Below, piece by piece: positions 47,357-64,000 of a stretch of 64,000 nt of DNA. The notes beneath the pieces were generated by a model. The model was not told the origin of the DNA, did not search any database, and saw only the letters and a list, made by a program, of their open reading frames with translations. The stretch lies in contig JAEHCO010000005.1 of NCBI GenBank assembly GCA_020697715.1, positions 1-64,000 on the forward strand. Direction: 5' to 3'. The translations under genes and the position numbers were made by a program. Positions within the stretch are counted from its first letter, which is position 1, and each line of letters begins with the position of its first letter. The DNA is from Methanobacteriota archaeon (lineage in GTDB: Archaea > Thermoplasmatota > Thermoplasmata > SG8-5 > JAGLSY01).

Positions 47357-47474
47357 ACCAGATGATACATGAAGTTCAGTATATTTTAAACTTCATATTG
47401 TGTATGAGCTGACCAGCCAGCCATCTAGAACATCCACCAGTAATTATATAACCCCAGTGGCTGATTATGTACTG

Positions 47475-48230
47475 ATGAGCGAATGGGATGCAGAGATTCT
47501 GATCATTGTCATATGTTTCACATTAGCATTCTTAGCCCATAGGAAGTCCATACTTACAAAAAATGGGTCCATTGGAGCTTTTTTCGTCGGTATCATCATA
47601 GGCATCATGGGACATATCACGTGGGTCATCCTTCTTCTGATATTCTTCCTCACCAGCTTCCTTGCCACCAAATATAAATTTGAATACAAGAAAGCGAAGG
47701 GATTACAGGAAGGAAAGGGCGGCGAGAGAGGACTGAAGAACGTACTGGCGAATGGAGCTGTGCCAGTCCTTATCGCGATATTGAGCTTCATATCCGAACA
47801 CTATTCATACCTGGATAAAGGAACGTGGTCGATAATATTCATCTCATCTATAGCAGTCGCTGCCTCTGACACACTGGCCAGTGAATTGGGCGTGATATCC
47901 GATAAAGTTTATCTCATCACCAATGGAAAGAAAGTGAAGGCAGGAATAGATGGCGGTATCTCATTGCTTGGGCAAACGGCCGCCTTCATTGCAGCTTCCT
48001 ACACCGCTGTCCTGGGATATCTGGCATTCTATTATTTCGATATGATAGACCAGAGTTGGTATGTCGTCATACCCCTGGTCACTTTCATCGGCTTCATGGG
48101 ATGTCAGGTCGATAGTGTCTTCGGGGCCACTCTTGAGACAAAAGGAATACTTACAAAATTAACAAATAATCTGTCGTCAATAGCAGTTGGCGCGATAATA
48201 GCATGGTGGATACTGACATGGCTCGTATGA
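47475..48230 (+). CDS. DUF92 (TMEM19-like) membrane protein
   Basis: R...NVLANG, SDTLASELG, DGGISLLG, DSVFGATLE. Confidence 0.9.
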   Translation: MSEWDAEILIIVICFTLAFLAHRKSILTKNGSIGAFFVGIIIGIMGHITWVILLLIFFLTSFLATKYKFEYKKAKGLQEGKGGERGLKNVLANGAVPVLIAILSFISEHYSYLDKGTWSIIFISSIAVAASDTLASELGVISDKVYLITNGKKVKAGIDGGISLLGQTAAFIAASYTAVLGYLAFYYFDMIDQSWYVVIPLVTFIGFMGCQVDSVFGATLETKGILTKLTNNLSSIAVGAIIAWWILTWLV

Positions 48231-49447
48231 AGATACTGATTATCATATGTGATGGAATGGCGGATAGACCGTCTTATGAATTGAAGGGTAAGACCCCGAT
48301 GGAAGCCGCCTCAACACCCGCGATGGACAAGCTGGCTAAGCTTGGTTCCAATGGCCTGATGGACCCGATAGGCAAGGGCATAGTTCCTGGAAGCGACACT
48401 GCCCATCTTTCACTTTTTGGCTACGACCCATACAAATATTATTGCGGAAGAGGAACTCTCGAAGCCGCTGGCCTCGGCATATACATGAAAAAAGGTGATG
48501 TGGCCTTCAGATGCAATTTCGCGACATCGGATAGCGATCTGCGGATACTCGACCGCAGAGCGGGCAGAATTGCCTTCGGAACTGAAGAACTGGCCGAAGC
48601 GATCAATGGACTTGAGATCGATGGCGTGAAGGTGATATTCAAGGACGCTGTCGAGCATCGTTCCGTCATGGTGCTTCGAGGTCCTGGCCTGAGCTCCAAG
48701 GTCTCGGAGGTCGATCCACATAATGAAGGCGAGATCGCCTGGAAATCCGTAGCAACGGAACCTGGAGCGGAGAAGACTGCCGATATCCTGAATAAATTTA
48801 CCAGAATGTCATTTGATATTCTGCATAAACATCCGATCAATATCGCGAGAAAAGAAGAGGGATTGCTTCCCGCGAACATCATACTGGCCAGAGGACCGGG
48901 GGATGTGCCGGACATACCGACCTTCAAAGAAGTGCATGGGATGAAGGCCTCGGCCATAGTCGGGATCACCCTTGTCAAAGGATTATGCCGCATACTTGGA
49001 ATGGAAGTGCCCGAGATAGAGGGCGCGACCGGAGGCGCGGACACCAGCCTGGAGAATAAGACCCAGGCTGTTCTGCAAGCTCTGAAGGATCATGATCTCG
49101 TGCTGTGGCATATCAAGGGAACTGACGTCTTCGGGCATGATGGTGATGCTGTTGGCAAAAAAGAGTTCATCGAGAAGATCGATGCCAGCCTGGCTGGCCT
49201 GGTGGATAAGCTGGGCGATGATGTGATGATCGCCATAACCGCCGACCACTCCACCCCAACCTCGGTGAAGGACCATGCTTCCGATCCAGTGCCCTTGCTC
49301 ATATACGGCAAGGGATTGAGAGCGGACAAGTGCCAGGTATTCAATGAGCATGAGGTTTCCAATGGCTCATTGGGGATCATCAATGGTCTGGAGCTTATGC
49401 AGATATTGAAAGGATTGGGCGGTTGGAACGATAAATTCGGCGCTTAA
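48227..49447 (+). CDS. apgM: 2,3-bisphosphoglycerate-independent phosphoglycerate mutase
   Basis: DGMAD, PGSDTAH, DRRAGR, D..GHDG, TADHSTP. Confidence 0.94.
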   Translation: MKILIIICDGMADRPSYELKGKTPMEAASTPAMDKLAKLGSNGLMDPIGKGIVPGSDTAHLSLFGYDPYKYYCGRGTLEAAGLGIYMKKGDVAFRCNFATSDSDLRILDRRAGRIAFGTEELAEAINGLEIDGVKVIFKDAVEHRSVMVLRGPGLSSKVSEVDPHNEGEIAWKSVATEPGAEKTADILNKFTRMSFDILHKHPINIARKEEGLLPANIILARGPGDVPDIPTFKEVHGMKASAIVGITLVKGLCRILGMEVPEIEGATGGADTSLENKTQAVLQALKDHDLVLWHIKGTDVFGHDGDAVGKKEFIEKIDASLAGLVDKLGDDVMIAITADHSTPTSVKDHASDPVPLLIYGKGLRADKCQVFNEHEVSNGSLGIINGLELMQILKGLGGWNDKFGA

Positions 49448-49511: not shown

Positions 49512-50495
49512 GTGAACGCGAAAAGCATACCAACTGTACTATCGGCAGACGAGATACTGGAAAAAGCCTTCAAGAGAGCGGATAAGATCCAGGTCTGGAA
49601 CGCGGGTAACCGCAATAAGACCCGGTCGGACTCTGGCTCCAAATTGAATTCATTCGGACACACGATATCGAGCAAACTTCGAATGTATGTGAGGAAATTC
49701 CCCAGCCTGGATCAGCTTCACCCCTTCTATTATTCACTTATCGACCTCAAGGTCAATAATGACAAACTAAGGCACTCATTGGGCGCGATCCAGTGGGCGG
49801 CCAATACCACGGATCTGATACTCAAAGAGAACGAAAAAAAGCTCAAAGGGACTGAGGGCAAGAAGGATATGGAAAAAGTGAGAAAATCCGCTTATGGCAG
49901 GATTTCTTCCGTGGTCAAGAAAGTGGAAAAAGACCTTGTCCTGCTTCAGGAAACAAGAGAGTTCATGAAGTCCCTGCCCGAGATAAATGTCGACGAGCCA
50001 GTCACTGTCATCGCCGGCGCTCCGAATGTCGGAAAGTCAGCGGTCATGACAAGGCTGACAGCGGCCACACCCAAGATAGCTTCCTACCCTTTCACCACCC
50101 AGAACATCAGCATCGGGCATATGGACCTGGAAGATGAGAGATTCCAGATCATGGACACTCCAGGATTGCTGGACAGACCTCTTGAGGAAAGGAATGACAT
50201 CGAGAGGCACGCGATATTGGCGATAGAACATATTGCCAGTATCATTGTTTTCATCCTCGACCCATCAGAATCTTGCGGCTATGTGATGGAAAAGCAGGAG
50301 AACCTACGAGCGACCATAATCAAGTCCTTCCCGCAAGCGAAGGTCATCACGATCACCAACAAATCCGATATGGCGACCATGGACGAGTATCTGGCCGTGT
50401 CCGCCCTGCACGACAAGGGATTTGAAGAACTGGAAAAACTTCTTTACAAGGAGCTGGATGCGATACCACCAGCACCTTATTATGGGCCGGATTGA
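49512..50495 (+). CDS. NOG1-family GTP-binding protein
   Basis: LHPFY, GAPNVGKS, YPFTT, DTPGLLDR, NKSD. Confidence 0.92.
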   Translation: MNAKSIPTVLSADEILEKAFKRADKIQVWNAGNRNKTRSDSGSKLNSFGHTISSKLRMYVRKFPSLDQLHPFYYSLIDLKVNNDKLRHSLGAIQWAANTTDLILKENEKKLKGTEGKKDMEKVRKSAYGRISSVVKKVEKDLVLLQETREFMKSLPEINVDEPVTVIAGAPNVGKSAVMTRLTAATPKIASYPFTTQNISIGHMDLEDERFQIMDTPGLLDRPLEERNDIERHAILAIEHIASIIVFILDPSESCGYVMEKQENLRATIIKSFPQAKVITITNKSDMATMDEYLAVSALHDKGFEELEKLLYKELDAIPPAPYYGPD

Positions 50496-50509: not shown

Positions 50510-53260
50510 TCAATCCCAGAACCTCTTCGTTCTCGCATATTTGACTTCCGAATTGAGGATGGCTGCTAAGAAATCATCCTCATCCTGATACGACCTCTGG
50601 AGTATCAAGGCCGCATTGCCTGGCCCCACACCCCGGGCGGCCAGGCAGAGCGCGGCTCTTTGTCCATGATTGCTCATCAAGGAGGCTGTTTTCATCATGT
50701 TCTTTATTTCTTTCTTCTCGGCAGGTGTGGGATTCTTTTTCTTTAGTAATTTGAGATTGTCCATCTGATGCCTTCTGATGGTGGCGACCATCACTCCTCC
50801 GCATCTCTCACAGGATACACGATCCGGGATGGATGCCACGGATCGTATGGTCTTGCTATTGCAGTTCATGCACACCTGCACCATGCGTTCCTTTTCCAAT
50901 CGTTTTTTGAGGGCCATGAGGATCGCGTGAGTTGGACGTGCTGGCATCATCATGTCCATCCTCTGCTCGATACCCTCCTTGCCGATAGGAGAAAGAGCCG
51001 ATCTCTCCAGAGCTATTTCCCCGCTCTGGATCTTTTCAATTATTTGAGTGGCCAGTGGTATGTTGAGGTTCTCGTACACCGTCTTATTAACGGATTCTTT
51101 CATGATGGAGGTTCCAGCATAGGTTCCCATTATCCTCTCGATGTTCAAACTGCGATAATCCGCATCTTTTCGAATAGCTCCGAACTTCTTGGCCACATAG
51201 ACGAACTTCCACCTGAGATAAGCCGTGTTCCTCAGATATAGTTTCAGAATGTCATTCACGGTGACTGGGTCGGTCTTTCTGAATATGTCCTCCACTATGT
51301 CGATATTGATCATTCTGGGCAGCAGGAGCATGATCCTGTAAGGGTCGGTTCGAACTGCCACGGATTCGCCCAATCTGGCCATCAGTAAAGCTGAGACCAG
51401 CTTTCCCAGGGTCTCATTGACCTTGGTCCCGAAGCAGGCATTGATGACGATGGTACGATCCGATGTCTCGATGGTCATTAATTTATCAGTGGGCATCAGG
51501 CATTTCGCCCTCTGTCCAGCCAGAAATTCCTGAGCCTTGTCCCTGGCATTCGCCCTTGCGGGATAATCATCATAATTCTCCCTTTCTCTAAGTCGGCCAA
51601 CTTCCTGGGCAATGGCATAGGGTATTGGAATGTCCTCCCCAGACCAGGATGGAACGGTTCCCAGGCCCAGAGAAGGCTCGACCAATATCGTGTCTTCTTC
51701 AAGTGACACGATGTTCCAGGGTCTTCCCCTGACAATGAGGGAAGCGGTTGGCTCGGCATAGGCGACGACAAAGCTCTCGTCCAGCTTGCCGATAGGCTTC
51801 CGGGTTGTGATATCGACAACTCGGAACGTTCTCTCATCGGGTATCATGGAAACATTATCGAAAAAGTGAAGTCGCGATCTCTTGTTCCTTCTGAACTCAT
51901 CATCTTCCACCCTGATGACCCTGATCTCTCCGAGTTGCTCGACAACTCGGTCATATTCCTCCCTATCCAGTGTCTGGAATGGATAGGCCCTTGTCACGAT
52001 CTTGAAGAACTCCTCGATATTCTCATCGCCAACCTGCATCGCGTGAGCGATCACCTGATTCGCCAGGACCACCAGCGGGTTCTTTCTGATATCGGTTTGT
52101 TCCAGCTCGCCAGCCAATGCTCTGCGAGCGACCACCAAGGATTCGAGTATGTCATCAGGCGTGTCGGTGACTATCACTCCTTTTGACAATTGGCCTATCT
52201 TGTGGCCAGATCGTCCCAGCCTCTGGACAAGTCTGGAAACCTCCCTTGGAGAATTGTATTGAATTGTAAAATCAGCCGATCCAACATCTATACCCAGCTC
52301 CAGAGAAGAGGTGCATATTAGAGCATCCAGCATCTGGCTTTTGAATTCATCCTCCATCTGGATCCGAATATCCTTGGAAAGCGAGCCGTGATGAACCCCG
52401 ACAGGATGATCGGGATCTATAAGATGAAAGCGAGCACCCAGTATTTCCGCAGAATCCCTCGTATTGACAAATAGTAAAGTAGAATTATGAGCCTTTATCT
52501 GCTCCGAGCAGAAGCGAAGGCGAGCGGCTGTGTCCTCATCCGAATGGATGGTGTCAGCCAATAGAACATCTCCCTTTTCAGGAACGGGAGATGAGACTTT
52601 CACCGACATCCGCTTGTCCCTGGCGACATTGACTATCTCTATCGGGCTGCTGCTACCTCGGAGGAACCTGGCCACCTCCTCCGGTGTGCCGACAGTCGCT
52701 GAAAGTCCAATTCGCTGAAAATCATGATCGGCCAGCACCCTCAGTCTTTCCAAACCGATGGACAGCTGAGCCCCCCTCTCGTCCTGTGCCAGCTCATGTA
52801 TCTCGTCCACAATGACGTGCTTGACATTCTTCAGGATGTTCTTCAATCGAGAGCCAGTCATCATTATCTGAAAGGTCTCCGGGGTCGTGATCAATATCTG
52901 GGGAGGCTTCAATACCTGTTTCCTGCGATCGTTCTGGGTCGTGTCCCCGTGCCTCACGCTCACAGTTATTCCCAGTCTTTCCCCGAACCAGGTCATTCTC
53001 TTCATCATGTCCCTGTTGAGTGCCCGAAGCGGAGTTATATACAGTGTGTGGAATCCGGCTGGCTCGGTTTCCAATATCTTATGAAATATCGGAAGGATAG
53101 CGGCCTCGGTCTTCCCAATGCCTGTGGGTGCGACAAGTAGAACATTCTTTCCTTCAAGTGAAACTGGAATGACCTGCGCCTGTGCATCGGTCGGGCGTGA
53201 AATACCCAGCTCCTTCATCGCATCCCTTATCCTGGGATCCAAAAGACTGAACTCGTTCAT
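50510..53260 (-). CDS. Lhr-like SF2 (DEAD/H) helicase
   Basis: APTGIGKT, PLRALNRD, DEIH, SAT, TSSLELGID, QRLGRSGH, C-terminal zinc ribbon. Confidence 0.93.
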   Translation of the reverse strand: MNEFSLLDPRIRDAMKELGISRPTDAQAQVIPVSLEGKNVLLVAPTGIGKTEAAILPIFHKILETEPAGFHTLYITPLRALNRDMMKRMTWFGERLGITVSVRHGDTTQNDRRKQVLKPPQILITTPETFQIMMTGSRLKNILKNVKHVIVDEIHELAQDERGAQLSIGLERLRVLADHDFQRIGLSATVGTPEEVARFLRGSSSPIEIVNVARDKRMSVKVSSPVPEKGDVLLADTIHSDEDTAARLRFCSEQIKAHNSTLLFVNTRDSAEILGARFHLIDPDHPVGVHHGSLSKDIRIQMEDEFKSQMLDALICTSSLELGIDVGSADFTIQYNSPREVSRLVQRLGRSGHKIGQLSKGVIVTDTPDDILESLVVARRALAGELEQTDIRKNPLVVLANQVIAHAMQVGDENIEEFFKIVTRAYPFQTLDREEYDRVVEQLGEIRVIRVEDDEFRRNKRSRLHFFDNVSMIPDERTFRVVDITTRKPIGKLDESFVVAYAEPTASLIVRGRPWNIVSLEEDTILVEPSLGLGTVPSWSGEDIPIPYAIAQEVGRLRERENYDDYPARANARDKAQEFLAGQRAKCLMPTDKLMTIETSDRTIVINACFGTKVNETLGKLVSALLMARLGESVAVRTDPYRIMLLLPRMINIDIVEDIFRKTDPVTVNDILKLYLRNTAYLRWKFVYVAKKFGAIRKDADYRSLNIERIMGTYAGTSIMKESVNKTVYENLNIPLATQIIEKIQSGEIALERSALSPIGKEGIEQRMDMMMPARPTHAILMALKKRLEKERMVQVCMNCNSKTIRSVASIPDRVSCERCGGVMVATIRRHQMDNLKLLKKKNPTPAEKKEIKNMMKTASLMSNHGQRAALCLAARGVGPGNAALILQRSYQDEDDFLAAILNSEVKYARTKRFWD

Positions 53261-53610: not shown

Positions 53611-54663
53611 ATGGAACATCTTGAGGATGAATTCAGCCTTCGGCTCCTTCGCCACCTGGTTTCAGGAGAGGGTGTGGATGTCAATATCAATGCTCTTGCC
53701 AAAAGACTCGGTATACACCGTACCACCGCAAAGAACAAGGTCAAGGCATTGATAGATCAAAAGATTCTGGATTACCCCAAATATCCATTCATCCATCTTT
53801 TTCAGGAGTATCCTTTACTCGTGCTTGCCTGGGCGGATATCCCGCGGATATCCCAAGCCAGGTCATTCTTTGAAGAGGATCTGAATATCTTTGCGGCATT
53901 TCCCTGCATGGAAGGTCCTTACAATACTCTTTTAATAGAATTCTTCGAGGATATGGAATCCTATCATTCATGGCGTGAGACTATAGTAAAAGATCAAAAA
54001 TTACCCCGGCGAGAGAATCGTACAGCTGCCGAGGTCTATATGTTTAGCAATAAGCTTGAATTCAAGTACGACCCAGCATGCTTCCTTAACAATATGCGGA
54101 GCGAATTCAAATCAAACAAGAAAATGATGATCGGTGACCATAAGCTGGATAAAACAGATTTCAGGATATTTGAATTACTCCTGAGCGGAGAATATATCCA
54201 TGTGAACGAAACATATCTGGCTAATAAATTAGGGACCAATAGAAAAAAGATAGGTCGTCGAATAGAGAAATTATTGAAAGATAACATTGTCGCTCCTGCA
54301 CGGTGCTATTTTCCAGATCTCCTCGCCCCTCCTAAATATAATATGATAATATCAATGATAGAATTGAAGTCGAATAGAAGTGAGATCAAGAAGTTCATTC
54401 TTGCAGATAATAATATCCCGAGGGCACTTGAAAGCAGTATTGGCAGGTATAATATTCTTCTATTCTCTGCATTCCCTGCTATTGATGAATTCTTTGAATG
54501 GGGGGATAGATTGATAAATAAATTCCCAGAGAGCATTGGAGCCATGTCAAATACGATCCTCTCATCTCGAACAATGCACACGATCAATGCTCAGAAGGTG
54601 TCTCTGGGGTTGATAGAAAAGATGTTGCTTGAACTTAGAAGGCAGAAGGCAAGGCAAAAATAG
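53611..54663 (+). CDS. Tandem Lrp/AsnC-like winged-HTH regulator
   Basis: NINALAKRLGIHRTT and LDKTDFRIFELL..LANKLGTNRKKI..RIEKL; G.YN motifs in both effector halves. Confidence 0.75.
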   Translation: MEHLEDEFSLRLLRHLVSGEGVDVNINALAKRLGIHRTTAKNKVKALIDQKILDYPKYPFIHLFQEYPLLVLAWADIPRISQARSFFEEDLNIFAAFPCMEGPYNTLLIEFFEDMESYHSWRETIVKDQKLPRRENRTAAEVYMFSNKLEFKYDPACFLNNMRSEFKSNKKMMIGDHKLDKTDFRIFELLLSGEYIHVNETYLANKLGTNRKKIGRRIEKLLKDNIVAPARCYFPDLLAPPKYNMIISMIELKSNRSEIKKFILADNNIPRALESSIGRYNILLFSAFPAIDEFFEWGDRLINKFPESIGAMSNTILSSRTMHTINAQKVSLGLIEKMLLELRRQKARQK

Positions 54664-54813
54664 ACACAACTTTATTATGTTTGCAATAGCACATTTGTCA
54701 TGTTTTTATTAAGTTAATATACCACAATGCACATATTTGACATTATAACTGTGATATTATCTTATATATTAAATTCTATTTTATTGGTATCATAATCCCA
54801 GGAGGGATCATAT

Positions 54814-56100
54814 ATGGCAGATGACGGATACAACGCATTTGAGATAGAACAGGAACAGTTTGATCGAATGGCTGATAGTTTAGAGCTGGATAAGAGCGTG
54901 AGAGACCTATTGCGTTCACCCATTAGGGAATATCATTTCAATATTCCTGTTAAAATGGATGATGGCACTTTCAGGATCTTCAAAGGTTTTAGGATCCAGC
55001 ATAATGATGCCCGTGGCCCATGTAAAGGAGGAATAAGGTTCCACCCTCAGGAGACCGCGGATTCCGTGAGGGCACTTTCAATGTGGATGACCTGGAAATG
55101 CTCACTTGTGAACATCCCTCTGGGTGGAGGAAAGGGCGGGGTCATCTGTGACCCTCATAACCTTTCACAGAGAGAGCAGGAGAACCTGTGTAGGGGATGG
55201 GTTCGTCAAGTATACAAGAACCTTGGCCCGGACAATGACATTCCAGCCCCAGATGTGATGACCAATAGCCAGCACATGCTTTGGATGTTGGATGAATATG
55301 AGGCCATCAGCGGAGGTAGATACCCCGGAGCTATCACCGGAAAGCCTGTTGGAATGGGCGGCTCACTTGGCCGAACTGAGGCAACAGGTTATGGTGTAGT
55401 ATTTGTGCTGAGAGAAGCCCTTAAGGAATTAGAGATGGACATATCCAAGACCACAGCTTCTGTCCAGGGATTCGGCAATGTTGCCCAATATGCTATTGAA
55501 CTCTTTATCAAATATGGTGGAAAAGTCGTTTCAGTCTCTTGCTGGGATCAGAATGACCAAACAACATATGCATTTTTTAAACAAGATGGCATAGATCTGA
55601 AAGAATTGAGGAAGATAACCAATCGTTATGGAACAGTGGAAAAATCCAGGGCGGAGGAATTGGGCTACAAGGTATTGCCTGGTGATGACTGGCTGAAGCA
55701 GGATGTAGATATTCTCATACCAGCCGCACTAGAGAACTCGATCCATAAGGACAATGTCAAGGACATAAGCAATAAGGTCAAGATCATTGCAGAAGGTGCT
55801 AATGGACCAACAACACCAGAAGCTGATGAGCATCTCTATAGCAATGATGTTCTGGTGATACCGTGCTTCCTGGCCAATGCAGGCGGAGTGGTATGTAGCT
55901 ACTTCGAACAGGTCCAATCCAATACCAATTATTTCTGGCCAAAGGACGAGGTCCTGGGAAAGCTGGACGATAAGATGACAGATGCCTACTATGCAGTCAT
56001 CGAACTGAAAAAGAGAAGAAATATTCCTATGCGAGATGCGGCCTATATGATCGCCATATCGCGCGTAGCAGAGGCCTGCCATTTACGTGGCTGGGCATGA
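54814..56100 (+). CDS. gdhA: Glu/Leu/Phe/Val dehydrogenase family, glutamate dehydrogenase
   Basis: GPCKGGIRFHP, GGGKGG, DIPAPD, TGK, QGFGNV, EGANGP, ANAGGV..SYFE. Confidence 0.93.
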   Translation: MADDGYNAFEIEQEQFDRMADSLELDKSVRDLLRSPIREYHFNIPVKMDDGTFRIFKGFRIQHNDARGPCKGGIRFHPQETADSVRALSMWMTWKCSLVNIPLGGGKGGVICDPHNLSQREQENLCRGWVRQVYKNLGPDNDIPAPDVMTNSQHMLWMLDEYEAISGGRYPGAITGKPVGMGGSLGRTEATGYGVVFVLREALKELEMDISKTTASVQGFGNVAQYAIELFIKYGGKVVSVSCWDQNDQTTYAFFKQDGIDLKELRKITNRYGTVEKSRAEELGYKVLPGDDWLKQDVDILIPAALENSIHKDNVKDISNKVKIIAEGANGPTTPEADEHLYSNDVLVIPCFLANAGGVVCSYFEQVQSNTNYFWPKDEVLGKLDDKMTDAYYAVIELKKRRNIPMRDAAYMIAISRVAEACHLRGWA

Positions 56101-59100
56101 TAATGGAAAGGGAACGATGATCAAAAAATTCGATGAGATCGAAAAGATCATAGCTGAAGCAGCTAATAACAAAAAGGCAGGGGAGGTTAGTTCAACCTCG
56201 AGAGCAGGTAGCACTGCCTCTCCACGCCTCATCAGGAATATTCTCCTACTTTGTACTGAATATGATTATTTCATTCTGGAGGAGGAGGGTAGATTGACAT
56301 CACTCTTTCGTAAGATGTACGACCACATTGGGGGTAACCCCCCAAAGATAATCAAGGCAGAAAATGAGAAAGCCTTGTTGTCCATCCTGAAAACAAAGGA
56401 CATTGATGTTCTGATCATGTTCAAACCTCCAATTGAAATGGATGCATTTGCCCTGGCCAGGAAGGTTAAAGATCAAAAACCAGATCTGCCAATAGTTCTG
56501 GTTGATAATAATACAGAAGACCTTGATGAGCTGGTTGAAGCAAATACTGGTGAAACCATTGATTGGATATTCACATGGTTCGGTGATGGTAAGATATTCC
56601 TTAACATAACACAGTTCATAGAGGATCAGCAAAATTTTGGATCAGATACACCAATTCTCCCTCAAAGAGTGCTGATCATTGCCGAGTCTCCAAGATATTA
56701 TTCTAATCTATTGTCAGAGGCCTATGAAGCAATATGGGGTCAACTTAACAGTATTTTGCCAGAGGATATGCCATCTCCTTTGGAAAGCAGGCTCAGAAGG
56801 AGATATCCCCAGGTCCTTATTGCAGATTCCACCAAAGTAGCCAAAACGATATTTGCTGAAAACCTAGACGATATTCTCTGTGTTATAATCGACATTGACC
56901 AATCTAATATTGAGAAAAATGAATCATTACTATATCAATTCATAGAAAGAGTTGTAGAGACCAAACCTTCAGCTCCTACGTTGTTGTTATCCTCAGATTC
57001 TAATTGGCAATCAATGTCAGAATCAAGTGAAATAGATTTCTTACAAAAGGGCTCTCCTAATTATATTGGCAAGATACGGAACTTCATTCAGGATTCTTTG
57101 GGTTCCAAGGACTTATCCATTTCGGATAAGGATGGAGCAGAATTGATAAGAATTGAAGATATCAAGACCTTTGAAAAAGCCATTTGGACAATGCCTGCCC
57201 CCATCCTTCTAGATCACTCTCACAACAATAGTTTGATAAGATGGCTTATTTCGAGATTGGAGTTCGAGCTAGCACATGAATTTAAAACCATTATTTCAAT
57301 AGAAGATGAGCCTGAAATACTCCGAAAGAACATGACCGATGCCATGGAACAACACAGGCGAGATCTCAATAAGGGGGTGGTATCAAAATACTCTCGAAGA
57401 ACCTATGGAGAGCATTCAAGATTCTGTCGGATCGGCAAAGGTGCCATGGGGGGAAAGGCTAGAGGGCTTGCTTTCATGGACAAGATAATATCAAATTATC
57501 TGGAGAATGGCTTGTTCAGGAATTTGAATATCTCAATGCCCAGGACCATTGTCATCTGTTCGGATATCTTCGATTCATTCCTTGAGGATAATGACCTGGT
57601 TAACGAAGAGCTCTACTTCATGTCTGATGAAAGAATAGCAATGAAATTCATGGAAGCTGACCTACCACCAATATTACTTGGTGATCTTAGAGCCTTCGTC
57701 AGAGAGACAAAGGTTCCCATTGTCGTACGTTCGTCAAGCCTACTGGAGGATGCTTTGAACCATCCATTTGCAGGGGTTTATTCATCCCTTCTTCTACCAA
57801 ATGAATCATGGGAAACAGATCTAAGATTCCAGGAGCTTTGCAATGCTGTAAAATATGTGTTTGCCTCAGTCTTCTTCCAAAAGGCCAGAACTTACATGGA
57901 AACAACCCCCAACACGATAGAGGATGAGAAGATGGCTGTCATTATCCAGGAACTCATTGGCCAGAAATATGGTGATGTTTTCTACCCCACGATTTCCGGT
58001 GTAACGAAATCATACGAATATTATCCATCTGGCTCATGTAAGAACACAGATGGTGTGGTCAACTTGGCTTTGGGGCTAGGGAAGGCCGTGGTAGATGGAA
58101 GTAGCACATTCAGGTTCTGCCCGATGCATCCCAAGGTCCACAAATACGGAACTGTGAAAGAACTTCTGGGTCAATCCCAAAAGAAGTTCTATGCTGTGGA
58201 TCTGACCTCTTATGTTAATATTGTTCAGCGGGATGAGGATAGTGCCTTGGTCAAATTAGACTTGACAACAGCTGAGGAGCATGGCATACTGGATCATACG
58301 GCCTCTACATATTCGAATGAAAGATTATATCCCGGAATTGGGAGAGATGGTTCCAGAGTCATTGATTTCGCACCCATTCGTGAGCTGGGTATCATACCCC
58401 TTCCTAAGGCGATCCACATGCTCCTTCAAGTCGGTGAAATAGCCATAGGAACACCAGTGGAGATAGAATTTGCAGTCAATATCCATCCAGAACCCAAGCG
58501 ACCAGTCGATCTATATCTGTTACAAATTAGAAGTATGTTCTCCAATGTGGCTACCCAGGAAGTGGAGATCGGCCAGCATGATGAGAAGAATATCATCTGC
58601 TATACCGAGAATGTGCTTGGTAATGGTATAATTGATAATATCAAGGATATTGTTTTTGTCAAGCCTGAAGGATTTGAATTATCCAAAAACCAATCCATTG
58701 TTCCACAGATAAGGAAATTGAATAAAAAATTGATGGAAAGTAAAACCCCATACATTCTGATAGGCCCAGGCCGATGGGGATCCACAGACCAATGGCTAGG
58801 AATACCAGTAACCTGGAGTGACATAGCAGGAGCGAAGATCATAGTAGAAACCCCTGTGAAAGAGAGAATAATCGATCCATCCCAGGGTTCGCATTTCTTC
58901 CATAATATGACATCCGCTCACATCGGATATTTCACAATAACTCCATTTGGAAAAGGAACCATTGATTGGGATTGGCTGGGAGAACTTCCCACTGCTGAAG
59001 AGACCGAGAATCTGAAGCATATTCGCTTTGACACTCCCTTGGAAGTACGAATAGATGGCAATCATGGTCTCGGTGTGATACTGAAAAAGCTTTCGAAAGA

Positions 59101-59128
59101 AGTAATGGAGGTTGCTGAAGATGAATGA
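56087..59128 (+). CDS. Receiver-like domains + PPDK/PEPS-type ATP-grasp domain + C-terminal His-containing domain
   Basis: MGGKARGL, VRSSSLLED..FAG.Y.S, MAVIIQ, LGLG..VV, EIEFA, LLQIR, GPGRWGS, GSHFF. Confidence 0.82.
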   Translation: MAGHDNGKGTMIKKFDEIEKIIAEAANNKKAGEVSSTSRAGSTASPRLIRNILLLCTEYDYFILEEEGRLTSLFRKMYDHIGGNPPKIIKAENEKALLSILKTKDIDVLIMFKPPIEMDAFALARKVKDQKPDLPIVLVDNNTEDLDELVEANTGETIDWIFTWFGDGKIFLNITQFIEDQQNFGSDTPILPQRVLIIAESPRYYSNLLSEAYEAIWGQLNSILPEDMPSPLESRLRRRYPQVLIADSTKVAKTIFAENLDDILCVIIDIDQSNIEKNESLLYQFIERVVETKPSAPTLLLSSDSNWQSMSESSEIDFLQKGSPNYIGKIRNFIQDSLGSKDLSISDKDGAELIRIEDIKTFEKAIWTMPAPILLDHSHNNSLIRWLISRLEFELAHEFKTIISIEDEPEILRKNMTDAMEQHRRDLNKGVVSKYSRRTYGEHSRFCRIGKGAMGGKARGLAFMDKIISNYLENGLFRNLNISMPRTIVICSDIFDSFLEDNDLVNEELYFMSDERIAMKFMEADLPPILLGDLRAFVRETKVPIVVRSSSLLEDALNHPFAGVYSSLLLPNESWETDLRFQELCNAVKYVFASVFFQKARTYMETTPNTIEDEKMAVIIQELIGQKYGDVFYPTISGVTKSYEYYPSGSCKNTDGVVNLALGLGKAVVDGSSTFRFCPMHPKVHKYGTVKELLGQSQKKFYAVDLTSYVNIVQRDEDSALVKLDLTTAEEHGILDHTASTYSNERLYPGIGRDGSRVIDFAPIRELGIIPLPKAIHMLLQVGEIAIGTPVEIEFAVNIHPEPKRPVDLYLLQIRSMFSNVATQEVEIGQHDEKNIICYTENVLGNGIIDNIKDIVFVKPEGFELSKNQSIVPQIRKLNKKLMESKTPYILIGPGRWGSTDQWLGIPVTWSDIAGAKIIVETPVKERIIDPSQGSHFFHNMTSAHIGYFTITPFGKGTIDWDWLGELPTAEETENLKHIRFDTPLEVRIDGNHGLGVILKKLSKEVMEVAEDE

Positions 59129-62100
59129 TGGCCAGATATCAGGAAATGGTGCAGAACAGAGGCTTGAAGAGAGAATAAAGGAGCTCAATTGCATATATGG
59201 TATATCCGCAATCACTCAAGATGAAAGCATCACCCTAAATGAAGCACTACAGGATATTCTCCAGCTGATCTCCCAAGCTTGGCAGTATCCCAATTCCACA
59301 TATGCTCGAATTATCATAGATGATGAAGTTCATTCAACACCAAATTATAAAGAAACGCCCTGGCTACAATCAACCCAAATAAAGCATGGAGGAAAAATCA
59401 AGGGCATTATAGAGGTCGGCTATCTTGAAGAGATGCCAGCCATGGATGAAGGACCATTCTTAGCAGAGGAAAGAAAGTTACTCAAAGCCATTTCAGAGTT
59501 GATTGGAAACTTCATTGCACAAAGACAGATCCGTGATAGACTAAATAATAACAATAATAACATCAACAAGGCAGCTGATAAAGATGACTGGGAAATAATC
59601 TTGGGCATATTGATGAAGACAGACCCAAGAAGTTCTCTTCGAATTACAAGGCGCATGATATATCATCTTTACAGAATCCAGAACGAAGAAATTGCAGCTA
59701 TTGTGAACAGTATATGCCAGCTGGACGAGGCAGATTCTGAGTGGTGTGGGATCAATATACCCAATCCCAGAAAGGATATTGTAGCCTTGAAAAAAATACA
59801 AGCAGAGGTTTTTAAAATTGCGAAGGACGCTTTACCACCTGAGGAGATATCAAATCTATTCAATATGTGGCTGAAGGCTGATAAAGCTCGCCCTCTTCTT
59901 CTGGCTTCTCAAAAGCAAAGTATTCCTTTGACAGAGATCACAAGTGAACTCAATAGGTTCTGGGATATGCCGGAGGATGCCAGAACACTACTTCCTGAGG
60001 ATGATATATCCATATCCACAGCCCTCATACGTCGATTTTTCACCAGTAGGCTTGATTTCATCAACAATGCAAAAAAATACATTGGTGTTGGAGATTTTGT
60101 CAGTCTTTTAAAGACAGTTGTTGGTCCCCCTGAAGGAGAAGGAAAGCTGGGTGGAAAGATATCTGGTGTATATCTTGCTGAAAAAATAATCGAGATGGAA
60201 AAAATAACCCATGAGCACCTGCGGGATGTGAAATTCGCTGATAGCTGGTATATCACTTCAGACACACTGATAGATGTGATCCATTACAATGATCTGGATG
60301 ATATGGTACACATAAAATATCTTGATCCAAGCGAGATACGCCAGGAGCACCCATTTCTGGAACAACTCTTCAAAAATTCAATATTCCCTCCTGAGATCGA
60401 GAAAGGCCTTAACAGGATATTGAGAAATATTGGAGACAATCCAATAATCGTAAGGTCATCCAGCCTTCTTGAGGACAGCTTTGGAGCTGCATTCTCTGGA
60501 AAATACAAAAGCTTGTTTTTGGTCAATAAGGGTACATTGGAGGAAAAGAGAAACGCACTCATGGATGCAATATTAGAGGTTTATGCATCTACATTTGCCC
60601 CGGATCCCATTGAATACAGGAGAGAGCGTGGACTCCTTGACTTCTCGGAAGAGATGGGGATATTGATCCAGAAGGTCGTTGGAACGAAAATAGGCCCTTA
60701 TTACATCCCGGCATTTGCAGGTGTGGCCTTCAGCAACAATGAGTTCCGATGGTCTCCGAGAATAAGAAGAGAGGATGGAATAATCAGAATGGTCGCTGGC
60801 CTTGGAACAAGAGCTGTGGATAGGGTCGGAGATGATTATCCTGTATTGGTATCTCCCAATAAGCCAGATATTCAGGTGAATGCCCTTGTTGATGAATCTA
60901 TTCAATATTCACAGCATTTCATGGATGTCATTAATATTGAAAAGGGAACCTTTGAAACAGTAAGCTCCCTGGATCTCATTAGAGAATATTGGGATGTTTA
61001 TCCAATAATAACCAAAATAGTTTCCATACATCGTGATGGAATACTCAGACCAGTCACAGGTGTATTGATGGATATCGAAGATGCGGATCTTGTCATAACC
61101 TTCTCTGGGTTGATAGAAAAAACTTCTTTCATCAAACAGATCAAAAGTGTTTTAAATATTTTGCAGGAAAAGATGGGAACCCCAGTAGACGTGGAGTTCG
61201 CACACGATGGTGAAAAACTTCACATATTACAGTGTCGTCCTCAAAGCTTTGGCAAGGAGACAGTACGAGTCCCAATACCAAAGAACATACCCAATAACAG
61301 GAAGATATTCTCAGCAAGTAAATACGTAACTAACAGCCACATAAAAAATATCGAATATATGGTCTATGTGAGGCCTAGTGCATATGATGCTTTGAGCGAG
61401 AGAAACGATATGCTGAATGTGGCCAAAGCCGTGGGTGGTCTAAATAAGGCTCTTCCAAAAGGTAGGTTCATCCTAATGGGGCCTGGCCGATGGGGAAGCC
61501 GAGGAGACATCAAGTTGGGTGTGCCTATTTCATATAGTGACATTAACAACACTTCACTTCTGATAGAGATAGCTATCAAAAAAGGAGGTTATCTACCTGA
61601 CCTCTCCTTTGGCACGCACTTCTTCCAGGATCTCGTCGAGGCAGATATCCATTATCTACCACTTTATCCTGACGATCCAGATTCTATATTCAATGAAAAT
61701 CTGATGAACATGGCCCCCAATAGGCTTGGTGAATTACTACCAAAATACAAGGATATGGAACATGTGATCCAGGTAATTCAGATCGCAGATATCTCTGATG
61801 GTGGGACCATGAATGTCGTAATGGACGGGGAAGCGAATGATGCACTTGCCTATGTCATGCCACCTGATCACTGGACCTGGAGGATGAAGAAGGTCGAGGA
61901 ATTAGGCAATATGCTGGATGCCGAATTGTATGGGGTTGAAGCATTTTATGTCTTCGGGAGCACCAAAGAAGCAACTGCTGGCCCGGCAAGTGACATTGAT
62001 CTTCTGATACATTTCAACGGAAATGAGGAACAGAGAGAGAGTCTTCTATCCTGGCTCCATGAACGTGGTGTCAAGTTGGGAAAGGAGAATAAAGAAAGGA

Positions 62101-62237
62101 CAGGGGGCCAGACAGATGACATACTGGATGTTCACATAATCACAGATGAAGATATTAAGAACAAGAGTTCATGGGCAGTGCATATTAACTCTCCTCATAG
62201 TGCTGCAAAGAAGATACCATTAAGAAATGATAACTAA
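59121..62237 (+). CDS. GAF-like + PPDK-type ATP-grasp + His domain + C-terminal nucleotidyltransferase fusion
   Basis: ERIKELNCIY..GPFL.EE; LGGK, VRSSSLLED..FSGKY.S, DVEFA, LQCRP, GPGRWGS, GTHFF; FGS...AG..SDIDL..D. Confidence 0.82.
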   Translation: MNDGQISGNGAEQRLEERIKELNCIYGISAITQDESITLNEALQDILQLISQAWQYPNSTYARIIIDDEVHSTPNYKETPWLQSTQIKHGGKIKGIIEVGYLEEMPAMDEGPFLAEERKLLKAISELIGNFIAQRQIRDRLNNNNNNINKAADKDDWEIILGILMKTDPRSSLRITRRMIYHLYRIQNEEIAAIVNSICQLDEADSEWCGINIPNPRKDIVALKKIQAEVFKIAKDALPPEEISNLFNMWLKADKARPLLLASQKQSIPLTEITSELNRFWDMPEDARTLLPEDDISISTALIRRFFTSRLDFINNAKKYIGVGDFVSLLKTVVGPPEGEGKLGGKISGVYLAEKIIEMEKITHEHLRDVKFADSWYITSDTLIDVIHYNDLDDMVHIKYLDPSEIRQEHPFLEQLFKNSIFPPEIEKGLNRILRNIGDNPIIVRSSSLLEDSFGAAFSGKYKSLFLVNKGTLEEKRNALMDAILEVYASTFAPDPIEYRRERGLLDFSEEMGILIQKVVGTKIGPYYIPAFAGVAFSNNEFRWSPRIRREDGIIRMVAGLGTRAVDRVGDDYPVLVSPNKPDIQVNALVDESIQYSQHFMDVINIEKGTFETVSSLDLIREYWDVYPIITKIVSIHRDGILRPVTGVLMDIEDADLVITFSGLIEKTSFIKQIKSVLNILQEKMGTPVDVEFAHDGEKLHILQCRPQSFGKETVRVPIPKNIPNNRKIFSASKYVTNSHIKNIEYMVYVRPSAYDALSERNDMLNVAKAVGGLNKALPKGRFILMGPGRWGSRGDIKLGVPISYSDINNTSLLIEIAIKKGGYLPDLSFGTHFFQDLVEADIHYLPLYPDDPDSIFNENLMNMAPNRLGELLPKYKDMEHVIQVIQIADISDGGTMNVVMDGEANDALAYVMPPDHWTWRMKKVEELGNMLDAELYGVEAFYVFGSTKEATAGPASDIDLLIHFNGNEEQRESLLSWLHERGVKLGKENKERTGGQTDDILDVHIITDEDIKNKSSWAVHINSPHSAAKKIPLRNDN

Positions 62238-63088
62238 TCTATTGAGATAAGTTCTCTTGTTGCATTGGCCAGGTCATCTGTATCGAACCTTATCAAAGCG
62301 ATCTCTGAACCATCATGGGCAGCATTGAAGGAGTGCGTTTTCCCTTTCATTTCACGCCATTGGCCAGTCAATCTGGCAGATTCATGAATATGCCCATGCA
62401 GTGTGAGCAATGGCTGTTTTTCATCTATGAAACGCTGAACCGCGATACTTCCCACATGAATGTCCATGGGGGCATGATCAACTTTCATGCCATCCAATGC
62501 CGCCCTATCTAAATTGGAATCATAAGGTGGAGCGTGGAATAGGTAAATCGTCCTATCTGGGGGAGAGGCCAGGGCTAGCTTTTTTAGATCATTGGCAATG
62601 GTGGCTGTTCTGATTTCTTTTTCAGGTACTTGCACTGTACGGACACCTTCCTCTGGTGAAACACAGCCCACATCCACATGTCTTGAAACATCATAACGCT
62701 CCCAATCCTTGAATTGGAATGGAGTGGGGTTAACATAAGAATAGCCAGTGATGTACAAATTATCAAAAGAAATTGTACGATCGTGCAGATATTCTATCAA
62801 TCCGGATTTATCTGCCTCTAGGAACAATGCTTCATACTGGCGTGGGTCATCATTCCCCATTATGACGAAGAAACGAGTTTTGGATCCATTGGCTTCTGAA
62901 TAAACCTTGATAAGTGAAAATAATTCATTCTCTAAGAAGAGCTCTGGGTCTTCCTCCATCCCCAAGCCACTTGGGAAGATATCCCCTCCAAACAAAACTG
63001 CATCTGGCTCTTCGATGGAAATTATCTTAAATAATTTCCTGTATTTGTCAACATTCCCATGTAGGTCCGAGACGAAAAAGCATTTCAA
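62234..63088 (-). CDS. Metallophosphoesterase (calcineurin-like)
   Basis: SDLHG, GGD, GNDD, HAPP, HGHIHE. Confidence 0.88.
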   Translation of the reverse strand: MKCFFVSDLHGNVDKYRKLFKIISIEEPDAVLFGGDIFPSGLGMEEDPELFLENELFSLIKVYSEANGSKTRFFVIMGNDDPRQYEALFLEADKSGLIEYLHDRTISFDNLYITGYSYVNPTPFQFKDWERYDVSRHVDVGCVSPEEGVRTVQVPEKEIRTATIANDLKKLALASPPDRTIYLFHAPPYDSNLDRAALDGMKVDHAPMDIHVGSIAVQRFIDEKQPLLTLHGHIHESARLTGQWREMKGKTHSFNAAHDGSEIALIRFDTDDLANATRELISID

Positions 63089-63315
63089 TTTTATTTCCTC
63101 CAGTTCCTGAACATAATCAATAATGAGGGCTTATAAATATTTATTATGTTCTTATATTCGTTAGTATGTTCATGATCTGATTGAGATAGAGGTGAAAAAG
63201 AGTGGTGAATAGGCCATACAATATTCATTCATTTTGATTTTTCATGGAATAACCTCAAGTAGTGAATGATACATTTAAAGGCATGGTGCATACTGTGTTA
63301 AACTCAAATGGATCA

Positions 63316-64000
63316 ATGATCGATACTATCAAGAAAAGAACATCTGTTAGAACATATGATGAGCAGAAAATAACAGAAGAGATCTTTGACCAAATAACGA
63401 TCATACTAAAGAAATTCGAGGCTGAGCCAGGTCCCTTTGGAAATTATTCAAGATTTCAGATCCTGAAGCTCGATAATGAAGAGTCTCACCAAGGAGTGAA
63501 ACTGGGCACTTATGGTTTTATTAAAGGTCACATGGCCTATCTTGTGGCGATTTGCTCAAAAGAGAACGAGGCCATAATCGATATGGGATATTCTTTTGAG
63601 AAGGTGATCCTGAACATGACACAGATGGGGCTGGGCACATGCTGGATCGGGGGCACATTCAGCCGAGAATCTTTCATGAAATTCATCGATCTAAAGGACA
63701 ATGAATTCATTGGCGCTATCTCACCAATTGGTTATGGTTCAGATAATAATAGGATCAAGGAAAAAATTATCAGAAGAACCGCAGGTGCGGACAATAGAAA
63801 ATCCTGGGATCAGATGTTTTTCAAAAATGACTTTTCAACAGAGCTGAAAAAAGAACATGCTGGGGAATTGGAGATCGCATTCGAAATGGTGAGATGGGGG
63901 CCATCAGCATCCAATAAACAACCCTGGCGACTTATGTTGGTTGAAGAACAGGACATACGAACAATTCATTTTTATCTGGATTTTGACCCAAAATACACTG
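63316..64000 (+). CDS. Nitroreductase family protein (3' truncated by window end)
   Basis: MIDTIKKRTSVRTY, GLGTCWIGG, GPSASNKQPWR read directly from the sequence. Confidence 0.88.
   Translation, partial: MIDTIKKRTSVRTYDEQKITEEIFDQITIILKKFEAEPGPFGNYSRFQILKLDNEESHQGVKLGTYGFIKGHMAYLVAICSKENEAIIDMGYSFEKVILNMTQMGLGTCWIGGTFSRESFMKFIDLKDNEFIGAISPIGYGSDNNRIKEKIIRRTAGADNRKSWDQMFFKNDFSTELKKEHAGELEIAFEMVRWGPSASNKQPWRLMLVEEQDIRTIHFYLDFDPKYT

Follow-up and report, generated by a model that had tools for sequence, protein, structure and literature searches.

A dikinase-like protein pair encoded behind glutamate dehydrogenase in a Thermoplasmatota archaeon: a candidate switch of the enzyme

Two large proteins encoded behind a glutamate dehydrogenase (GDH) gene of a Thermoplasmatota archaeon are best explained as divergent members of the pyruvate phosphate dikinase (PPDK)/phosphoenolpyruvate (PEP) synthase/rifampin phosphotransferase superfamily, reduced to a PPDK_N ATP-grasp domain and an adjoining swivel domain with an invariant histidine. 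The position of such genes after a GDH gene, here and across numerous bacterial phyla, suggests an unstudied switch controlling GDH. The DNA analysed (the window) is the 64,000-nucleotide stretch formed by positions 1 to 64,000 of contig JAEHCO010000005.1, assembly GCA_020697715.1, and the module in question consists of gdhA, the genes of the two proteins, here called A and B, and a metallophosphoesterase gene on the opposite strand. GDH connects carbon with nitrogen metabolism, and to our knowledge no dedicated covalent control system has been established for a prokaryotic GDH, unlike for glutamine synthetase. The original prediction, made from the sequence alone, had read A and B as signal-gated, dikinase-like enzymes that phosphorylate GDH or another acceptor. 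The findings below support this reading insofar as the proteins are not PEP synthases, possess a carrier fold with an invariant histidine, bear sensor-type N-termini and are linked to GDH, whereas the phosphorylation of GDH itself is still inferred. The module and its domains are as follows (aa, amino acids).

54814..56100, + strand: gdhA, 428 aa, hexameric-type glutamate dehydrogenase ('GDH1' class, ~420 aa)
56087..59128, + strand: protein A, 1013 aa from GTG 56087, more likely start ATG 56117; in order a pseudo-receiver, a receiver-like domain, a linker, a PPDK_N ATP-grasp and a swivel-like C-terminal domain
56231..56611, + strand: REC1-like domain of A, residues ~49-175, a pseudo-receiver
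56663..57076, + strand: REC2-like domain of A, residues ~193-330, receiver active-site residues largely kept in the family
57077..57421, + strand: linker domain of A, residues ~331-445, conserved, W386 invariant
57443..58561, + strand: PPDK_N ATP-grasp of A, residues 453-825, PF01326 at 130.3 bits
58571..59098, + strand: C-terminal swivel-like domain of A, residues 829-1004, with invariant G-R-x-G, G-x-P, E and S-x-G-x-H
59112..62237, + strand: protein B, 1041 aa from TTG 59112, likely start ATG 59121; in order a possible GAF-like N-terminus, a helical region, an ATP-grasp, a swivel-like domain and a minimal nucleotidyltransferase (MNT) domain
60147..61283, + strand: PPDK_N ATP-grasp of B, residues 346-724, PF01326 at 175 bits
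61284..61826, + strand: swivel-like domain of B, homologous to the C-terminal domain of A, with GPGRWGS and SFGTHFF
61923..62120, + strand: Pol-beta/MNT-type nucleotidyltransferase of B, residues 938-1003, with a G-S...S-D-I-D-L motif
62234..63088, - strand: calcineurin-like metallophosphoesterase, 284 aa, convergent with B

The kinship of A and B with the dikinases is carried by the ATP-grasp domain, for which the Pfam cut-off of PF01326 (PPDK_N) is 27 bits. The two proteins were predicted to be paralogs of about 1000 aa, and by BLASTP they align with 29% identity over 533 aa (E 8e-42), the alignment extending through the swivel-like region. The motifs that had been singled out in them, GGK, VRSSSLLED, EFA, LQxR, GPGRWGS and G[ST]HFF, are all present in both translations. 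When the last 574 residues of A were used as query, at least 8000 candidates passed a word-indexed search, the closest among the matches listed being Thermoplasmata/Thermoplasmatota proteins named only 'PEP/pyruvate-binding domain-containing protein', and an exhaustive search returned 3303 clusters (50% identity) at E <= 1e-3 and 847 at E <= 1e-30. Since stand-alone cores of ~570 aa are frequent among the family members, the unit of the family is the ATP-grasp together with the C-terminal domain. Other members carry different or longer N-termini.

Conservation was followed in an alignment of 28 cores, in 61 full-length A proteins, and in the open reading frames (ORFs) of 80 related loci plus the window, which comprise 81 A-type ORFs of >540 aa and 13 B-type ORFs. 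In the cores and the full-length proteins the ATP-grasp elements GGK, VRSS, Q, E-x-E-F and Q-x-R vary little or not at all; in the core alignment R109, S110, S111, Q182 and E355 are invariant, with Q374 and R376 at least 90% conserved, and among the A-type ORFs GGK is found in 81/81, LQxR[PS] in 79/81 and VRSS[SGA] in 73/81. The C-terminal domain likewise keeps G-R-x-G, G-x-P, E and S-x-G-x-H-F in the cores and the full-length proteins. S-x-G-[ST]-H occurs in 80/81 A-type and 12/13 B-type ORFs and G-x-G-R-W-G-[ST] in 79/81 and 12/13, the thirteenth B-type ORF, without both swivel motifs, being cut by a contig end.

The PPDK_N match and the database names of the relatives would make A and B plain PEP synthases or PPDKs, yet this identity is almost certainly wrong and was rejected on domain content. 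Canonical enzymes combine PF01326 with PF00391 and PF02896, and of these A and B match the first in Pfam; neither protein matches PEP-utilizers_C (PF02896) at E <= 0.01, in agreement with the predicted absence of a PEP/pyruvate TIM barrel, and PEP-utilizers (PF00391) is unmatched by Pfam in both. There is also no room for a hidden barrel, as A ends ~10 aa past its C-terminal domain and B holds only the nucleotidyltransferase there. Furthermore, the NCBIfam PEP synthase models give 17-57 bits against cut-offs of 598-1063, and contig 28 of the genome encodes a true PPDK, canonical in its G-G-M-T-S-H motif, as the only match to PF00391 in the genome. The differences from PEP synthase and PPDK thus extend over architecture, sensors and genomic context alike. 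At the level of sequence, a search of the PDB returned PEP synthase 2ols for B (E 0.0054) and a receiver domain of NtrC for A, and no other matches for these two proteins or for the phosphoesterase.

Structure prediction brings the superfamily relationship into view. The model of the A core (predicted local distance difference test score, pLDDT, 87.5; predicted TM-score, pTM, 0.88) retrieved with Foldseek, as best matches, rifampin phosphotransferase 5hv1 (E 3.8e-13), PEP synthase 2ols, HpeI and PPDK (1kbl, 5jvl). The C-terminal domain modelled alone (pLDDT 91.5) gave no Foldseek match at E <= 1e-3, the weak rows including PPDK, pyruvate kinase, aconitase X and chaperonin domains. In a structure search independent of Foldseek, the phosphohistidine domains of PPDK, Rph and Enzyme I and the C-terminal domain of pyruvate kinase took ranks 1-4, 6, 7 and 9 of 48,161 chains. 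By this search the C-terminal domain has a phosphohistidine-carrier fold, and it bears an invariant histidine; G[ST]HFF, which the original prediction had proposed to compare with the mobile histidine of PEP-utilizers, is a candidate for that site. A profile comparison by hhalign of the C-terminal domain with 22 PPDK/PEP synthase His domains from relatives gave a probability of 0.04% (global) and 0.18% (local), which places the domain outside PEP-utilizers at the level of sequence. When L-G-I-P-V is aligned with the canonical G-I-P in a rough motif comparison, GPGRWGS would fall near the canonical histidine and the invariant histidine one strand later.

Among characterised relatives, rifampin phosphotransferase (Rph; 5hv1) carries a large substrate-binding domain between its two parts, and A and B are without one; in A the swivel-like domain (from residue 829) follows directly on PPDK_N (to residue 825), with no domain inserted. 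The swivel domains of A and B have no detectable sequence similarity to that of Rph, showing GPGRWGS and SxG[ST]HFF in place of G-G-x-T-S-H, and the sensor N-termini and the GDH linkage belong to A and B and are absent from Rph. A and B score 16.2 and 31.6 bits against an Rph model with a cut-off of 999 (all Rph models 16-32 against 999-1700), and, for the Rph relatives PigC/RedH, 41.4 and 38.6 bits against the NCBIfam PigC model with a cut-off of 1300. Enzyme I of the phosphotransferase system is charged by PEP through its barrel rather than by an ATP-grasp and has no sequence similarity to A or B.

An indication of what these proteins may act upon comes from the company of their genes. Loci were scanned with one genome per species; relatives were found in at least 607 species genomes, and the best 80 loci, mostly bacterial and from >10 phyla, were kept and searched by tblastn with the window proteins. 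A GDH match at E <= 1e-5 was found in 52 of the 80 loci. The match was longer than 100 aa in 50, with 41 lying within 600 bp of the family gene and 9 more at 0.65-2.8 kb; of the 56 loci whose two flanks both reach 1.6 kb or more, 30 have GDH adjacent. Given one to few GDH genes per genome, we estimate that chance would place a GDH in an ~18-kb interval in ~1-2% of cases, and a chance neighbourhood of gdhA and the family was rejected. Linkage to gdhA is thus conserved in other genomes, as had been anticipated, without being universal.

Two arrangements recur. In the first, a GDH 31-35% identical to the window enzyme lies directly upstream of a full-length A; it scores as the canonical NADP-GdhA equivalog (762 bits, cut-off 536). 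The second reproduces the module of the window: a GDH of 60-72% identity is followed by A, either in full length or as a core alone, and then by B and the phosphoesterase; this order occurs in Methanomassiliicoccales, Aminicenantes, Chrysiogenia, Bacteroidota, Chromatiales, Eisenbacteria, Calditrichota, Alphaproteobacteria and Acidobacteria. The window gdhA product contains both ELFV domains (ELFV_dehydrog 246.6 bits, ELFV_dehydrog_N 184.1 bits) and reaches 471 bits against the NCBIfam model GdhA_Arch with a cut-off of 750, a family member outside that equivalog. The partner GDHs span both major hexameric GDH classes. Because the identity of the GDH in the window-type module is so high across domains of life, the four genes of the module, gdhA through the metallophosphoesterase, were probably transferred together horizontally, which would also fit the slightly lower GC content of the A/B/phosphoesterase region (0.41-0.42 at 56-64 kb, window positions 56001-64000, against 0.43-0.50 elsewhere in the window).

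The same genome contains a third family paralogue of 986 aa (contig 11, ~421.5-425.9 kb; L084:7467-11922), 41% identical in the core and convergent with the only other GDH gene of the genome, of canonical NADP-GdhA type, so that each of the two GDH genes has its own partner. Among 21 related genomes, 18 carry the family, and in 15 of these 18, counted by hand, a member stands beside a GDH gene; in the other three, two members lie at the ends of short contigs and one belongs to a 91%-complete genome. In that last genome the A-type gene comes after one for a probable surface protein of 1857 aa that contains Glucodextran_B and Ig-like domains (L107:63-5636, G006 contig 45). In Bacteroidales the family was detected in 111/121 sampled species genomes, and gdhA is adjacent in 7 of the 20 best-scoring loci. 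Many Bacteroidales have two tandem members, one of ~1000 aa and one in a longer open frame of ~1150-1190 aa (e.g. G129:C1:2759766-2764436 and G139:C1:396179-400861). A gene pair for an NfnAB/GltD-like iron-sulfur flavoprotein, with the domains DHODB_Fe-S_bind and Fer4_20 + Pyr_redox_2, was observed near A-type genes in ~10/80 loci, mainly in Acidobacteriota (e.g. L020:10518-12838), and may be linked to the NADPH supply of GDH.

Operon linkage of this kind is explained by a shared pathway equally as by regulation. A and B might then be small-molecule dikinases or ligases of glutamate/2-oxoglutarate-linked metabolism that transfer a phosphoryl or nucleotidyl group to a metabolite, or synthesise a signal molecule, with GDH supplying or consuming the substrate. 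The best-scoring characterised relatives (Rph, PEP synthase, HpeI and PPDK, as well as PigC/RedH) all act on a small molecule or a glucan, the NfnAB/GltD-like oxidoreductase genes recur near A, and family members also occur where no GDH is nearby. We nevertheless consider this explanation unlikely, though far from negligible. The short junction between ATP-grasp and swivel-like domain leaves A and B without a substrate-binding domain or barrel, and N-termini of sensor type (REC, possibly GAF) are typical of regulators. Moreover, partner GDHs of different classes fit GDH as the target better than one special pathway, and MNT-type transferases such as that of B are known chiefly as modifiers of proteins or antibiotics.

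The sensor-type character of the N-termini, which the prediction had described as two receiver-like domains in A and a GAF-like domain in B, was upheld in general terms, with receiver-like domains in A and a possibly GAF-like one in B. The receiver-like domains of A are supported across the family, in the 61 full-length proteins, but weakly in the protein of the window itself, where Response_reg is matched at E 0.021 (15.4 bits, under the cut-off) and the REC2-like region matches in Pfam only OKR_DC_1_N (E 0.0028-0.018). One homologue just passes the Response_reg cut-off (30.6 bits against 30.2). REC1 lacks both the acidic pair and the acceptor aspartate: the NtrC receiver from the PDB search aligns with residues 91-161 (E 0.019), its acceptor standing opposite a phenylalanine, and in the 61 sequences position 112 is M/F/T while 56/57 are S/A and S/T. 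REC2, on the other hand, keeps its active-site residues in most members (E199 in 52, D200 in 47, D269 in 54, S302 in 49 and K321 in 51 of the 61). The linker that follows matched no Pfam family in the window protein, and the equivalent region of some homologues matches DUF5752 weakly. The GAF-like N-terminus of B was not confirmed, the window protein having no Pfam GAF match; sub-threshold GAF/GAF_3 matches (E 0.0017-0.036) occur in 4/12 B-type N-termini, and Atlas leads for this region have scores of 0.78-0.81.

Such a receiver leads to another possibility, namely that A is a self-contained phosphorelay driven by its ATP-grasp, in which the swivel histidine would pass its phosphoryl group to the aspartate of the protein's own REC2, or a histidine kinase would feed REC2, so that the output is signalling and gdhA merely a co-regulated neighbour. 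The retention of the REC2 residues in 47-54 of the 61 proteins and the Response_reg match above threshold are in line with it, as is the ability of Enzyme I swivel domains to phosphorylate proteins. The genome has at least one hybrid kinase, and some Ignavibacteria loci have genes for a PAS histidine kinase and a LuxR-type response regulator interposed between family members, which in L011, L065 and L079 are two A-type genes, each GDH-paired. A phosphorelay is distinctly unlikely, however. Core-only A proteins without REC still sit between gdhA and B (L055, L057, L067 and L039), stand-alone cores are common, and B has no REC domain. The acidic pair of the window's own REC2 is degenerate (A199/E200), and a relay would name no output and would leave the pairing of the nucleotidyltransferase with the phosphoesterase unexplained.

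This pairing concerns the C-terminus of B, where a nucleotidyltransferase domain went unmentioned in the original prediction. It passes the Pfam cut-offs of both NTP_transf_2 (33.7 bits against 21) and Polbeta (28.4 bits against 26.9), its G-S ... D-x-D motif is present as GSTKEATAGPASDIDL, and the motif recurs in 10/13 B-type ORFs. The domain falls in the same minimal nucleotidyltransferase group as that of the MntA/HepT type VII toxin-antitoxin system; B differs in remaining under the cut-off of the NCBIfam MntA antitoxin adenylyltransferase model (E 1.8e-4, 21.4 bits against 60), in having no HEPN partner in the locus, and in being fused to a 900-aa dikinase-like protein.

The metallophosphoesterase scores 56.4 bits for Pfam Metallophos (cut-off 21.5), and its translation shows SDLHG, GGD, GNDD and HGHIH, which we take to be the metal motifs D-x-H, G-D, G-N-x-D and G-H-x-H. 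At E <= 0.1 the PDB sequence search gave no homologue of solved structure for it. Orthologues with 47-56% identity occur in 11/80 loci, each with a B-type gene. The enzyme is present in 10/10 loci whose B ORF bears the nucleotidyltransferase motif and in 0/2 loci whose B lacks the domain (L037 and L045, a small negative set), and also in L005 and L070, two loci in which the tblastn match to B extends across the nucleotidyltransferase. The original prediction had suggested that the phosphoesterase may reverse the modification; it tracks the nucleotidyltransferase and not the dikinase core, and if it is an eraser, a nucleotidyl group would be its likelier target, rather than a phosphate.

A and B themselves are best explained as working as one unit, with their genes translationally coupled here and fused elsewhere. 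In three representative proteins (P0131, P0133 and P0140) an A-core and a complete B are joined in one chain, in the order of the window genes. The overlap of the two genes in the window is genuine, as had been predicted: ATG 59121 of B stands behind GGAGG and lies 8 nt inside the end of A.

Based on these observations, a model is proposed in which A and B form a signal-gated pair of writers that, together with an eraser, would covalently modify GDH; we regard it as a serious possibility, with chances somewhat below even. A would be gated by its pseudo-receiver and receiver-like domain, and B, which also bears the MNT-type nucleotidyltransferase, by its possibly GAF-like N-terminus. On a signal, the ATP-grasp would load the swivel domain with a phosphoryl group, and the A/B pair would then covalently modify the co-encoded GDH, the mark being phosphorylation via the swivel domain, nucleotidylylation via the transferase of B, or both. 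The metallophosphoesterase would finally strip the nucleotidyl mark. The resulting system would be the counterpart of the control of glutamine synthetase by GlnE, which adenylylates that enzyme; AMPylation of proteins is a known activity of MNT enzymes. A precedent for nucleotidylylation of GDH exists in the inactivation of mammalian GDH through AMPylation by SelO (PMC12375108).

The proposed likeness to GlnE/GlnD is functional: a nucleotidyltransferase of the Pol-beta fold is encoded with a central enzyme of nitrogen assimilation and a candidate removal activity. A and B are not family-level homologues of these proteins, having no GlnE or GlnD domain at E <= 0.01 in Pfam; the removal is proposed to proceed via a metallophosphoesterase instead of a second transferase domain, and the dikinase-like cores have no counterpart there. 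Put in its widest form, the proposal is of a widespread, previously unrecognised, reversible covalent switch of GDH, in which a new dikinase branch (an ATP-grasp with a re-invented swivel His domain) would be a signal-gated protein phosphotransferase, the MNT domain an AMPylating writer and the metallophosphoesterase the eraser, in Thermoplasmatota, >10 bacterial phyla and most Bacteroidales species. In this breadth it is put forward tentatively, and we would not expect all of it to hold.

Several observations weigh against covalent control of GDH by A and B. GDH is lacking within ~8 kb in 19 of the 56 loci with full flanks and in 13/20 sampled Bacteroidales loci, and the 91%-complete relative has an A-type gene with no GDH found in its genome. 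No fusion of GDH with PF01326 occurs among 44 long GDH-containing proteins, which is weak evidence. The histidine invariant in the family lies, by the rough motif comparison, ~40 residues past the canonical T-S-H and may be a different site, and the family has no substrate-binding domain between ATP-grasp and swivel domain. In the window protein the acidic pair of REC2 is replaced, with D269, S302 and K321 retained.

The linkage data, moreover, fit binding to GDH equally as modification of it. A and B could be non-covalent regulators or scaffolds that read the adenylate or nitrogen status with their ATP-grasp and sensor domains and bind GDH allosterically, and protein partners do control GDH elsewhere, for example mycobacterial GarA and, in Thermus, an APRT-like protein. 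The strict conservation of the catalytic ATP-grasp residues, of the swivel His/Arg/Glu and of the nucleotidyltransferase Asp motif argues for catalysis instead, which makes purely non-covalent control very unlikely. Covalent modification of GDH by A and B is the reading preferred here.

The remaining junctions and neighbours of the module are as follows.

53611..54663, + strand: tandem winged helix-turn-helix (HTH) regulator, 350 aa, HTH units at residues 6-54 and 177-228
50510-53260 (- strand), 49512-50495 (+ strand), 48203-49447 (+ strand), 47400-48230 (+ strand) and 63262-63999 (+ strand): genes flanking the module, comprising an Lhr-type DEAD helicase, a NOG1-like GTPase, a cofactor-independent phosphoglycerate mutase, a DUF92 membrane protein and a nitroreductase-like protein

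The overlap of gdhA with A that had been reported holds only if GTG 56087 is the start of A; with the likelier ATG 56117, which is preceded by GGAAAGGG and lies 16 nt past the gdhA stop, it disappears. The metallophosphoesterase gene does converge on and overlap B, both stop codons sharing positions 62234-62237. For the upstream gene, described as an Lrp-type regulator, two clear winged-HTH units are present (HTH_24 27.2 bits and HTH_11 26 bits, above the Pfam cut-offs), but the Lrp/AsnC assignment is sub-threshold, with an HTH_AsnC-type match at 21.1 bits against 27 and a LysM regulator match at 17.5 bits against 180, and every NCBIfam match lies far beneath its cut-off. Among the 80 related loci this regulator is conserved in L004 only, with 59% identity. 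The flanking genes are of housekeeping type and seemingly unrelated to the module.

No published description of the A/B family or of GDH-linked PPDK_N proteins was found in a search from which subscription journals were largely absent; the ProFaNA article (PMC10364804) mentions PPDK_N only beside SelO. The database label 'PEP synthase-like' misleads metabolic reconstructions. Even without GDH as the target, A and B represent a large enzyme class for which a clear genomic lead exists. If the proposed control of GDH is true, the family would constitute a new type of protein-directed dikinase and a new use for the swivel-domain mechanism, and would offer a testable account of how GDH is regulated post-translationally in gut and sediment anaerobes.

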